A DNA stretch of 64,000 nt, from the IMG/VR virus record IMGVR_UViG_3300042549_004104, positions 64,001 to 128,000 of that record; one strand, written 5' to 3'. The notes below the pieces were generated by a model. The model saw nothing but the letters and a program-made list of their open reading frames with translations, did not search any database and had not been told where the DNA came from. Position numbers and translations under genes: made by a program. Positions within the stretch are counted from its first letter, which is position 1. Every line of letters begins with the position of its first letter. Source of the DNA: a virus. Taxonomy: Duplodnaviria > Heunggongvirae > Uroviricota > Caudoviricetes. Of the stretch, positions 33,277 through 40,151 are shown piece after piece.

Positions 33277-34101
33277 ATGTCAACTAATCCACTACAACAA
33301 TATTTCCGTCGTCCAGCTTTATATCTTAAATTACCTAGTCAAGGGGAAGGTTATCCTGAAAATAGCATAGAATTCCCTGAAAACGGTGAGTTAGCTATAT
33401 TTCCAATGACTGCAATTGATGAGATTACCGCACGTACACCGGACGCATTATTTAACGGGGTAGCAGTAATAGAAATCATCAAAAGTTGTGTACCATCAAT
33501 AAAAGATCCATGGCAAATCTTACAAATTGATCTAGACCCTATTTTGTTAGCAATCAAAATGGCTACTAATGGATCTACTATGGAATTTGATACTGTATGT
33601 CCATCATGCGAAGAACCTAATAAGTACGATATTAATTTAACACAATTATTAAATGAATATAAACCAGGGGAGTATAATACCCCACTAAAACTAGACCAAC
33701 TTTCATTGAAATTTTGTCCATTAAATTATAAACAAATTAATGAAACCAGTGTCATCCAATTTGAAATTCAACGTGCTTTACGCATTATACAAGACATGCC
33801 GGACGGTGATGAGAGAAATGCTAAATCAACTGAAGTTTTAAGAAAAATGAACCAAGTTACAATGGATATCATTGTTGAAACAATAGAATATATTTCTTCA
33901 CCGAATGGTATAGTATTGGATAAGAATTTTATTAAAGAATTTTTAGAAAATGTTGATGTAAAAACATTTGAAAAGATTAAAGATATCTCATTAGAATTAA
34001 AGAAATCAACAGATACAAAACCATTAAAATTCAAATGCATCAATTGTAGCCATGAATACGAACAACCTTTCAATGTGAACGTATCCGATTTTTTCGGATG
34101 A
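33277..34101 (+). CDS. gp26: Baseplate hub subunit (gp26-like)
   Basis: NPLQQYFRRP..YLKLPSQG, FPMTAIDEI, two CxxC pairs (CPSC, CINC), ends NVSDFFG. Confidence 0.85.
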   Translation: MSTNPLQQYFRRPALYLKLPSQGEGYPENSIEFPENGELAIFPMTAIDEITARTPDALFNGVAVIEIIKSCVPSIKDPWQILQIDLDPILLAIKMATNGSTMEFDTVCPSCEEPNKYDINLTQLLNEYKPGEYNTPLKLDQLSLKFCPLNYKQINETSVIQFEIQRALRIIQDMPDGDERNAKSTEVLRKMNQVTMDIIVETIEYISSPNGIVLDKNFIKEFLENVDVKTFEKIKDISLELKKSTDTKPLKFKCINCSHEYEQPFNVNVSDFFG

Positions 34102-34325
34102 AACTTCTTATACTTAACTCCGAAGCAGTTAAGAAGTGGTTGGATAATTTAGAGGAGGAAGTAAAAGATATTAAAGCAGGATGTTTAAAAATGTCTTGGT
34201 TTATGAGGGGCGGAGTTAGTTATGTTGATATACTTAACATGAGTACCGATGAAAGAAAAACCATTAATAAAATTATTGAAGAAAATCTAGAAACTACAAA
34301 AACTAGTAGAATGCCATTCTTCTAA
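34098..34325 (+). CDS. gp51: Baseplate hub assembly protein (gp51-like)
   Basis: Small protein ATGA-coupled to gp26; SWFMRGGVSY.DILNMS..ER. Confidence 0.65.
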   Translation: MKLLILNSEAVKKWLDNLEEEVKDIKAGCLKMSWFMRGGVSYVDILNMSTDERKTINKIIEENLETTKTSRMPFF

Positions 34326-34351
34326 TCCGTTATTATTCATTTGCATACAAT

Positions 34352-34371
34352 TAGGGTTATTACCTTATTTT
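34352..34371 (+). terminator. Possible weak terminator after gp51
   Basis: TAGGGT-TATT-ACCTTA followed by TTTT. Confidence 0.35.
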
Positions 34372-34379
34372 CATTTAAT

Positions 34380-34422
34380 AGATGAACTTCGTTCATCTCA
34401 GAACTCGCTATTGCTCGTTCTG
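34380..34422. other. Two abutting hairpins (C-GAA-G triloop and tandem G.A mismatches on the minus strand)
   Basis: agatgaac-ttc-gttcatct (34380-34398) and cagaactcgc-tatt-gctcgttctg (34399-34422). Confidence 0.6.
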
Positions 34423-34477
34423 GATTGTATTGTTTTTATTCTTATCTAGATTTTTAATTTTGTTTATTAAGGAATAT

Positions 34478-34840
34478 ATTGCCGCTTAGAAGCCATGGTA
34501 GTGCAAATTTGCACTACCAATGGTTAAGGTCATTTGCCATGCCCGTCATCCTTAGCTATCTATTCCCCAGTTAATCACCGTTTTTATGATATTAACTGTC
34601 ACCGGTTGTCCTGTAAATTGTTATGGGACTGTAGTGAGACTATCAAGTTTATTTCAACTGACGCCTCGACAACGCATGTTACATACCCGCAAGATAGAAT
34701 TAGATATGTACTCATTGTAGGTTCCCTAGAAAGATTGCCTACTCGGTGTTCCTATGTTATTGCTAACATACATACTCCAGAATCTAACGGCACAGCACAA
34801 TCTGTACAATCTCAAGGAGGACTGACAACTCAGCCAACGA
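34478..34840 (-). ncRNA. Candidate large structured non-coding RNA (~360 nt), family unrecognised
   Basis: At least 8 local stems and 3-4 long-range pairings; the wobble positions read as G-U on the minus strand; GCAA tetraloop; GC-richer than its flanks; largest intergenic gap in the window. Confidence 0.65.
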
Positions 34841-34849
34841 ATTTTTATA

Positions 34850-35407
34850 TTATGTTGTTTCTAAAGTTATTATTTTTGGTTTTGACGTGGTGTCTGTTGA
34901 TAAACCTGAGTATAATTTTACTAAGTCTTTGTTTTGTTTGAAGAAGGTTTCGAACTCTGTTAGATACCAATCACCATACTTCTTACTTCCATAAAATATG
35001 TAATTATCCATAATCCATGTAAATTTAGGTTGTACAGCAACATAACGACCCTTACGATTAAACTTCATAAAAAGAATATTTAAATCATTTGAATCTTCTA
35101 CATCTAACAGTTGTCCAATCCACGAATCAAGTTGTTTGCATTCACCTGTAAGTATTAGGTGAAAAGGAAAGTCCGCATAGAACTTACACTCTGCATTCAT
35201 TTTGCTGAAACTCTGTCCCGGAACAATATCGCCCTTAAAAGAACGAATCTGTCCCTCATGTAAGAATTGAGTTCTGGCTTGATTCTTGCCACCCACATAT
35301 GCACCGGATCCAGGAGCACGAATGAAACTTTCACCGTACAATTCTGATAGAAATTTTGCAATTTCCCGTTCAAAACCTGAACCTTTATTCTTTTGTGGAC
35401 TTGACAT
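34850..35407 (-). CDS. Holliday junction resolvase, Hjc-like PD-(D/E)xK nuclease
   Basis: KNKGSGFEREIAK.L...F.RAPGSGA...GDI......ECK.Y; directly downstream of gp46. Confidence 0.8.
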   Translation of the reverse strand: MSSPQKNKGSGFEREIAKFLSELYGESFIRAPGSGAYVGGKNQARTQFLHEGQIRSFKGDIVPGQSFSKMNAECKFYADFPFHLILTGECKQLDSWIGQLLDVEDSNDLNILFMKFNRKGRYVAVQPKFTWIMDNYIFYGSKKYGDWYLTEFETFFKQNKDLVKLYSGLSTDTTSKPKIITLETT

Positions 35408-40121: not shown

Positions 40122-40151
40122 ATTATAACACTTTAGTTGCAGAAATGCAAC
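40122..40151 (-). promoter_or_regulatory. Sigma70-like promoter for gp55 (TTGCAT-N17-TATAAT, extended -10) overlapped by an inverted repeat
   Basis: -35 at 40150-40145, -10 at 40127-40122; GTTGCA-GAAA-TGCAAC at 40136-40151. Confidence 0.7.

Follow-up and report, generated by a model that had tools for sequence, protein, structure and literature searches.

A conserved, uncatalogued structured RNA of uncultured giant phages is a candidate R-loop replication primer

Directly behind its resolvase gene, a T4-like phage of 360 kb carries a structured non-coding RNA element of ~350 nt (34478..34835, minus strand; 332-364 nt in relatives), recognised from its homologs and their covariation and present in a single copy in the whole genome examined. 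The element is a conserved, uncatalogued and ornate RNA class of uncultured giant phages. Because its terminal repeats change together and are followed by hairpins resembling those of plasmid origins, the RNA likely pairs onto its own DNA to start genome copying, and we lean towards the reading that it is a cis-acting R-loop primer RNA marking the phage replication origin.

Genomic context

The window analysed here, a stretch of 64,000 nucleotides, corresponds to bases 64001-128000 of a virus record that is 359,563 bp long and has a completeness rating of 100%. On one side of the element is a minus-strand operon, encoding in this order a late sigma factor, SbcD-like (gp47) and SbcC-like (gp46) proteins and a RusA-like resolvase; on the other is a convergent baseplate-hub gene on the plus strand, which ends in a TTTTTTC run that overlaps the next ORF, of 75 aa (gene and ORF within 33277-34325, junction near 34090-34101). 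The resolvase gene (34850..35407, minus strand; RusA-like/PDDEXK, phrog_244, PF24608) is the last of the operon. Before the first gene, an extended -10 sequence (TGnTATAAT; 40122..40130, minus strand) can be read as a candidate early host-type promoter and may drive transcription of the RNA element from 5.3 kb upstream. A promoter scan returned 33 sites against 33 expected, and this one, with a -35 that matches at only 3/6 positions, was not among them. The late motif TAAATA precedes structural genes and not the RNA element, which, together with the extended -10 at the operon start, fits early use.

Co-transcription of the RNA with the resolvase had been proposed in an earlier reading made from the sequence alone (hereafter the sequence-only reading) and is hinted at by RNA-library contigs of relatives, which bridge the two in three studies (X3, X5 and X19). 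Those data come from 8 of 21 listed runs, one of them probably DNA, and consist of contigs only, which show no strand, ends or level. Contigs of relatives cover parts of the element in X2, X3, X11, X5, X13 and X19 and not in X9; the sole 99%+ contig in X2 spans 34210-34463, outside the RNA element.

The genome encodes PolB, a DnaB-like helicase, a primase, a gp32-like SSB, a 5'-3' exonuclease, UvsX/UvsY-like proteins and a superfamily-2 helicase; the scan took in 172 proteins from outside the window. Neither an RNase HI gene nor a PriA gene was found in it, and a reverse transcriptase (PF00078) was not found in this genome rated 100% complete, in a search whose controls matched in 3/14. The search with the C-terminal part of T4 RNase H had no positive control. 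The 34 tRNAs lie at 0-4.6 kb and 351-359 kb, and the RNA element at 98.5 kb. In locus L335, a 475-aa protein annotated as RNA-binding (phrog_850; DUF2828/DUF7788; L335:7180-8604, minus strand) adjoins the tRNA cluster. A permuted two-piece beta-type tmRNA (146402-146878 of the genome; L324:18881-19355) with the tag ANDSQFALAA matches the betaproteobacterial model, which suggests that the host of the phage is betaproteobacterial.

Occurrence of the element

Homologs were searched for with an nhmmer profile, that is, a sequence profile and not a covariance model. The element stands directly downstream of the resolvase in 80/80 loci, with 68-84% identity, among the best 80 of 323 resolvase relatives in IMG/VR, and pattern scans located it in a further 108 of 117 viral loci. 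A motif from its middle domain led to 118 metagenome loci, 88 of which carry the element, and the resolvase is present in all 41 metagenome loci having enough upstream DNA. The 262 full-length loci reduce to 167 distinct element sequences. None of 120 pattern matches in prokaryotic genomes carries the element (22 of 64 parts of the collection scanned), and the GenBank phage collection holds no copy of it. In Rfam, the window had no match at gathering scores; relevant matches were also lacking for the element region at E 10 and for eight divergent relatives at E 1. No published description was found in literature coverage lying mostly outside subscription journals. The DNA-virus motifs listed in the accessible part of Fremin 2023 (PMC10690425) are at most 151 nt long; three motifs looked for are absent from the supplements of that paper other than files 1, 2, 4 and mmc1-3, and fragments may stand there.

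Near the resolvase of the cultured jumbo phages PA5oct, SCTP-2 and Phosso, neither the profile of the element nor that of the sibling family described below had a match. Gene-poor gaps reach from the baseplate-hub genes to the resolvase in Sinorhizobium phage Phosso (L573:1486-2501), where an annotated RNase HI gene borders the gap, and in Pseudomonas phage PA5oct (L571:980-2300); GA-mismatch hairpins can be seen by eye on both strands of both. Two gaps in cultured jumbo phages fold with z of -1.45 and -1.77. The four ncRNAs reported for PA5oct in the available part of the source (PMC7318152) are all located elsewhere than the resolvase gap.

Fold of the RNA

Folding energy had been offered by the sequence-only reading as a check on the RNA. 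The single sequence does fold better than shuffles, only modestly so, and the plus strand does equally well (z -2.38 minus, -2.17 plus); the case for an RNA therefore rests on its relatives. Alignment A1 contains 61 homologs that are 54-80% identical to the window; the non-redundant rows numbered 65, of which 4 with long insertions were set aside. A 99-pair model, drawn partly from the very sequences scored, leaves 90.7% of the cells of these homologs paired, with two-sided changes at 69 pairs; 0/500 shuffles reach it, and slid controls give 33-45%. RNAalifold on 48 of the 61 homologs independently recovered most nested helices, with compensatory changes at 47/69 pairs. The model cells include 336 G-U against 94 A-C combinations, which favours the minus strand and bears out what had been argued from the wobbles. 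As many as 478 of 523 indels are not a multiple of 3, thus giving no coding signal, and a plus-strand ORF of 135 aa was rejected as a gene since it is not conserved. Judged from these comparisons, the element is a non-coding minus-strand RNA fold.

All features below are on the minus strand, and independent pairs for the helices were taken on a tree built from flanking proteins. The first hairpin, P1 (34820..34835), varies in sequence and keeps its pairing, with two-sided changes at 5/6 pairs. The P2/P3 arm (34775..34819), defined by alignment and covariation, consists of CUCC (34819-16) paired with GGAG (34778-75), a 2-bp stem (34811-10/34787-86) and a hairpin (34807-34790); its U.U and tandem G.A positions are invariant, and the pair 34810/34787 changes together in 6/6 independent pairs. 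A CCUCCUU sequence is an anti-Shine-Dalgarno look-alike that pairs with GGAG with compensatory changes. P4 (34753..34770; alignment and RNAalifold), a poorly aligning hairpin and site of long insertions, has a GNRA-type loop in 47/61 by a loose pattern. Insertions of up to ~45 nt extend it in L005, L011, L033, L045 and L098.

The core domain (34600..34748), found by covariation and RNAalifold, is closed by P5 (34748-44/34604-00), the long-range CACCG/CGGUG pairing that had already been predicted. Inside it are P6 (34742-17), P7 (34715-34676), P8 (34673-68/34610-05) and the variable hairpin P9 (34667-36), which aligns poorly (64.6% of cells paired). P7a and P8 each change together in 4/4 tree-independent pairs. 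Two near-invariant, unpaired YUACAG segments (34634-29 and 34616-11), without a partner in the model, flank one strand of pseudoknot 2.

Pseudoknot 1 (34556..34697) joins the P7 loop CUAUC (34697-93) to GAUAG (34560-56), as the sequence-only reading had proposed, with two-sided changes at 5/5 pairs, 97.4% of cells paired and 8/8 tree-independent pairs in agreement (p 0.008). Pseudoknot 2 (34564..34628) joins UCCC (34628-25) to GGGA (34567-64), with two-sided changes at 3/4 pairs and agreement in 3/3 independent pairs, too few for significance. Hairpin P11 (34568..34598) has two-sided changes at 9/11 pairs. Helix P12 (34544-39/34496-91) is tentative: its changes are one-sided only, and RNAalifold prefers another pairing. 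The terminal hairpin P13 (34497..34518; alignment and RNAalifold) had been put at ~13 bp; the hairpin stands, and its length comes down to 8 near-invariant pairs. The invariant ACUAC (34635-31) could pair with the GUAGU strand (34517-13) of this hairpin as an alternative fold, which might explain the invariance of P13; there is no covariation there.

Taken as a whole, the undescribed, large, pseudoknotted minus-strand phage RNA that the sequence-only reading placed behind the resolvase is upheld by the covariation, the lack of an Rfam match and the lack of a coding signal; the relatives gathered conserve it in 80/80 (best 80 of 323), and none of the known Rfam families matched. All 16 sequence stretches quoted were found where they had been placed, and the relatives' covariation supports the local stems, P9 and P4 aligning poorly. 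Two further long-range pairings, GCCG-UUAGA/UCUAA-CGGC and GUC-UCCUU/AAGGA-GAC, have to be given up: together they show two-sided change at 1/17 pairs and score 74.4% against 73.9% when shuffled, and each has 0/6 independent pairs. Newly added were CUCC/GGAG, AUG/CAU, GUUGUC/GACAAC and the pseudoknot UCCC/GGGA.

Mimicry of 16S rRNA, suggested by short likenesses, was also considered and rejected: at E 100 the profile has no match in E. coli 16S or 23S, and the 7-9-mers shared with E. coli 16S/23S are scattered and not colinear.

Repeats that covary by identity

Two copies of a short sequence, 57 nt apart and delimited by identity covariation, flank the last hairpin of the RNA. Site 1 (K-C-AU-GGCAA; 34534..34542, minus strand), the upstream copy, overlaps the 5' strand of the tentative P12; site 2 (K-C-GGCAA; 34479..34485, minus strand), the downstream copy, forms the last conserved bases. 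At positions 34542 and 34485 the covariation is one of identity and not of complementarity (G/G or U/U): where both are G or U they are identical in 134/134, without any G/U mix. There are 15 changes on the tree, and 9/9 independent pairs agree (p 0.004), as do 6/6 on the flanking-protein tree. The K positions can be scored in 151 of the 167 distinct sequences, of which 140 are identical and 11 differ. Where the core of site 2 departs from GGCA (GGUA, AGCA, UGCA), site 1 follows over 4 nt in 16 of 18 sequences, which come from few lineages. Sixteen sequences have UGCAA at site 1 versus GGCAA and match only if the U bulges, and in locus L567 the repeats are decoupled.

The complement of the 7-mer repeat is absent from the RNA strand in 61/61 members of the element family, and the template strand carries it by definition. 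Given that no complement is present within the RNA, site 1 likely pairs with site 2 of the template DNA strand. With such a partner, two coordinated changes suffice for identity covariation. Three would be required if a guide RNA were involved, and a protein would have to acquire a new specificity on every occasion. We consider RNA-template pairing probable. The predicted pairing of site 1 with the template is only 5-9 nt long, with a bulge in the window sequence. The identity-covarying repeat of the element is new here.

Spacer and hairpins downstream of the RNA

The RNA is followed by an A+T-rich spacer (34423..34477; 84% A+T over 34426-34475), by its composition a candidate unwinding element, and by two hairpins that carry tandem GA mismatches and loops of GNA type and were delimited with the help of relatives. 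Hairpin A (34399..34422, minus strand) has a stem with a tandem GA/GA mismatch under a GC-loop-GC top, and hairpin B (34380..34398, minus strand) an 8-bp stem with a C-GAA-G triloop. On the RNA-sense strand, hairpin A is found in 57/64 relatives (0/64 on the other strand), hairpin B in 56/64 (1/64), and one or both in 63/64 (1/64). An independent metagenome set gave the same picture, with the hairpins on the RNA-sense strand in 77 of 81 and on the other strand in 2. The phage's own genome has one hairpin motif at 3 places and the other at 4, and the two stand side by side only behind the RNA element. Where the baseplate genes are inverted or an insertion comes next (L018, L070), the hairpins have kept their place behind the RNA. 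Insertions of ~550 nt stand between the hairpins and the baseplate gene in L070 and L074.

Sheared GA mismatches and GNA loops are marks of DNA-type hairpins. Standard energy models gave no strand or DNA preference for hairpins A and B, and no paper on the DNA-type character of such hairpins was found in the literature. A blastn search of the downstream region against plasmids returned chance matches only.

Sibling RNAs in the same slot

A scan for hairpin B yielded 117 loci, 60 of which carry the element RNA 59-97 nt upstream on the same strand; most of the other 57 are preceded by unalignable structured RNAs. Among these 57, 50 are distinct and have enough DNA; they form clusters of 35, 9 and 2, with four left as singles. 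In these siblings, 7-mers anchored on either side of the last hairpin, without regard to identity, are identical in 43 of the 44 scorable loci and occur in 7 spellings (shuffled mean 20, maximum 27); by eye, the single miss is mis-anchored. The two copies of the repeat agree over 7 nt, one position taking any of the four bases, and the complement is absent from the RNA strand in 44/44 (300-560 nt available). At least three further unalignable RNA types with their own repeat spellings precede hairpin B (L415, L421, L424; L396, L363; L336; L403; L447). At L434, 300 nt upstream of hairpin B contain no RNA-like region, and GA-type hairpins lie on the opposite strand.

The larger sibling RNA, which forms the largest cluster, is matched in its 5' third by the Rfam motif RF01718 (Polynucleobacter-1), with 80-98 bits in 3 of 7 loci tested (L337:1356-1496, L355:1358-1504 and L397:2096-2236). 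As far as the available part of its description goes (PMC2864571), this motif is a candidate from 2010 with 141 positions and a possible cis-regulator of unknown function. Apparently Polynucleobacter-1 covers no more than the 5' third of a phage RNA of ~400 nt with repeat-hairpin-repeat and hairpin B at its end, a reading that would give this orphan motif a context. The siblings share with the element the slot, the repeat-hairpin-repeat end and, by eye, a short UACMGG...CCG / CGUUGU motif; unlike them, the element does not match RF01718. Homology of element and siblings is not shown, because neither family's profile picks up the other (best E 0.086 and 5.6).

Comparison with known RNAs and origins

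The sequence-only reading saw no core of tRNA, tmRNA, RNase P or group I/II introns in the element, and the searches concur, with no Rfam match and nothing from ARAGORN in the window. A tmRNA is further rejected for want of a conserved frame and by the separate tmRNA at 146.4 kb. RNase P RNA has paired 5' and 3' ends (P1) and a P4 with a bulged U; in the element the ends are unpaired and P5 is without a bulge. Introns of groups I and II are rejected also because the flanking genes are whole and convergent, and an RT-associated template RNA (retron, DRT) because PF00078 is absent from the genome.

No covariance model of ROOL, which we take to be RF03087, or of GOLLD matches the window or the eight divergent relatives. 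Like those RNAs, the element is large, pseudoknotted and phage-encoded (bioRxiv 10.1101/2024.12.08.627333, accessible part); unlike them, it is about half the size, lies outside a tRNA island and has a fixed link to a downstream hairpin cassette.

The ColE1/pMB1 origin (NC_001371), with its RNA II primer and persistent hybrid, is built like the element in that a long folded transcript contains a short tract twice in the RNA sense and is followed, on the same strand, by a GA-GC-GNA-GC-GA hairpin. Its G6 tracts are at 928 and 1175, and the top of hairpin A occurs once, at 1332, on the RNA II strand (RNA I is on minus); this hairpin is presumably n' pas. In the ColE1 model, the upstream G tract pairs with the template C tract. 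The two systems differ in that the G6 tracts of ColE1 are 247 nt apart, whereas the repeats of the element are of mixed sequence and 57 nt apart; the element also has two pseudoknots, no counterpart of RNA I or Rop that we could find, and the phage's own replisome. No sequence homology to RNA II/RNA I (RF00106) was detected, either as an Rfam match or with the family profile, which finds nothing in ColE1 at E 100. What is shared is the repeated RNA-sense tract and, in architecture only, a pas-type hairpin on the putative displaced strand. The roles of the ColE1 primer and of the n' pas (ssiA) site, and the essential G-rich stretch of ColE1-type primers, are covered in the available parts of PMC3167613 and PMC6317783, respectively.

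The origins oriF and oriG of T4 offer a second parallel, in a phage of the same kind: a transcript followed by an A+T-rich element forms R-loops, and R-loop priming is established there. According to the accessible part of the source (PMC3016281), they work through early or middle transcripts and, unlike the element, measure ~100 bp, with a MotA promoter, an unwinding element independent of sequence and no structured RNA described. On these comparisons, the element belongs to no tested family and most likely works like RNA II of ColE1 without being related to it.

A possible role in replication

In the primer reading favoured here, transcription from the operon promoter would run through the element, and site 1 of the RNA would pair with the template DNA at site 2, locking an R-loop. 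The persistent R-loop would then expose the A+T-rich spacer and the two hairpins, the RNA-sense strand on which these lie being the strand that such an RNA-template hybrid displaces. Host RNase H or the phage 5'-3' exonuclease would process the RNA to a 3'-OH primer, which the phage PolB would extend, and the hairpins would act as a helicase/primase loading signal for PriA of the host or a loader of the phage. Because the genome has no RNase HI or PriA, this reading has to call on host enzymes. Among the three functions suggested in the sequence-only reading, replication primer fits best, and packaging/scaffold is less likely since the operon is of early type and no TAAATA lies upstream. The two pseudoknots and the many invariant unpaired bases seem to exceed what a primer needs. 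Skew at four-fold sites shows no strand switch at the element slot, the best-fitting breakpoints being elsewhere, and the cumulative skew minimum lies 5 kb away, at a switch in gene direction. No mapped origin for this group of 200-500-kb phages was found in the literature.

We would go further only with much reserve: it is improbable, though conceivable, that the element represents, as its founding member, a superfamily of self-targeting ribozymes acting at origins. These ornate RNAs would be interchangeable, would each invade the template they come from via a co-evolving repeat, make their own 3'-OH primer or nick DNA by an RNA active site, and start jumbo-phage replication without an initiator protein.

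Alternative explanations

Instead of an origin, the RNA-template hybrid and the hairpins might constitute a barrier to transcription, or a terminator, where the early operon meets the convergent late baseplate gene. This would agree with the slot between convergent genes, where a scan found no intrinsic terminator-like site 3' of the RNA element, and with the missing skew signal, and it predicts the same covariation as an origin does. It leaves unexplained why the hairpin top should resemble the primosome-site region of ColE1 and why the cassette persists beside changed or inverted neighbours, and we think it unlikely.

Just as unlikely, in our estimate, is a free ornate RNA of the ROOL/GOLLD kind, a scaffold or cage in which sites 1 and 2 engage in homo base pairs or share one protein or guide RNA as a binding partner and the 3' tail consists of the hairpins. 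The element is indeed phage-borne, ornate and pseudoknotted, its loop-linker pairings could be intermolecular (bioRxiv 2024.12.08.627333, accessible part), and one G.G/U.U contact on its own might represent non-canonical pairing. Homo pairs can hardly account, though, for identity over 7 nt with all four bases at one position, and a bound protein would have to switch specificity at each of 15 changes; moreover, the element is far from the tRNA clusters, shorter than ROOL and GOLLD, and without an Rfam match.

Identical repeats flanking a hairpin are a signature of primer translocation and template jumping. The repeats could accordingly serve translocation of a primer or polymerase, the 3' end at site 1, which may be made by a nuclease or by the RNA itself, realigning to the template at site 2 and skipping the terminal hairpin; the core, with its many invariant non-paired bases, might then be a ribozyme. 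We rate this slightly lower still, given that the complete genome has no reverse transcriptase, that Rfam recognises no known ribozyme core, and that no hairpin-skipping joint occurs in the 8 RNA runs (contigs only).

A DNA-only element, a slipped-strand or cruciform structure on which the resolvase and the SbcCD-like nuclease (gp46/47) encoded next to it would act, would suit P13, a perfect palindrome in the window, and is very improbable given the G-U excess over A-C, the GNRA loops on one strand, the covarying pseudoknots and a P13 loop that is not palindromic in most relatives.

Implications

Even if the origin reading fails, the element represents an uncatalogued class of ornate RNA and a good target for structure determination. 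Covariation by identity, which standard covariation screens discard, may be a general genomic signature of RNA pairing to its own DNA. If the primer reading is true, these phages would have a single-copy candidate origin of ~460 bp with a base-level prediction on sites 1 and 2, and RNA-directed origin formation, familiar from ColE1, T4 and mitochondria, would come to include a large RNA folded in three dimensions.
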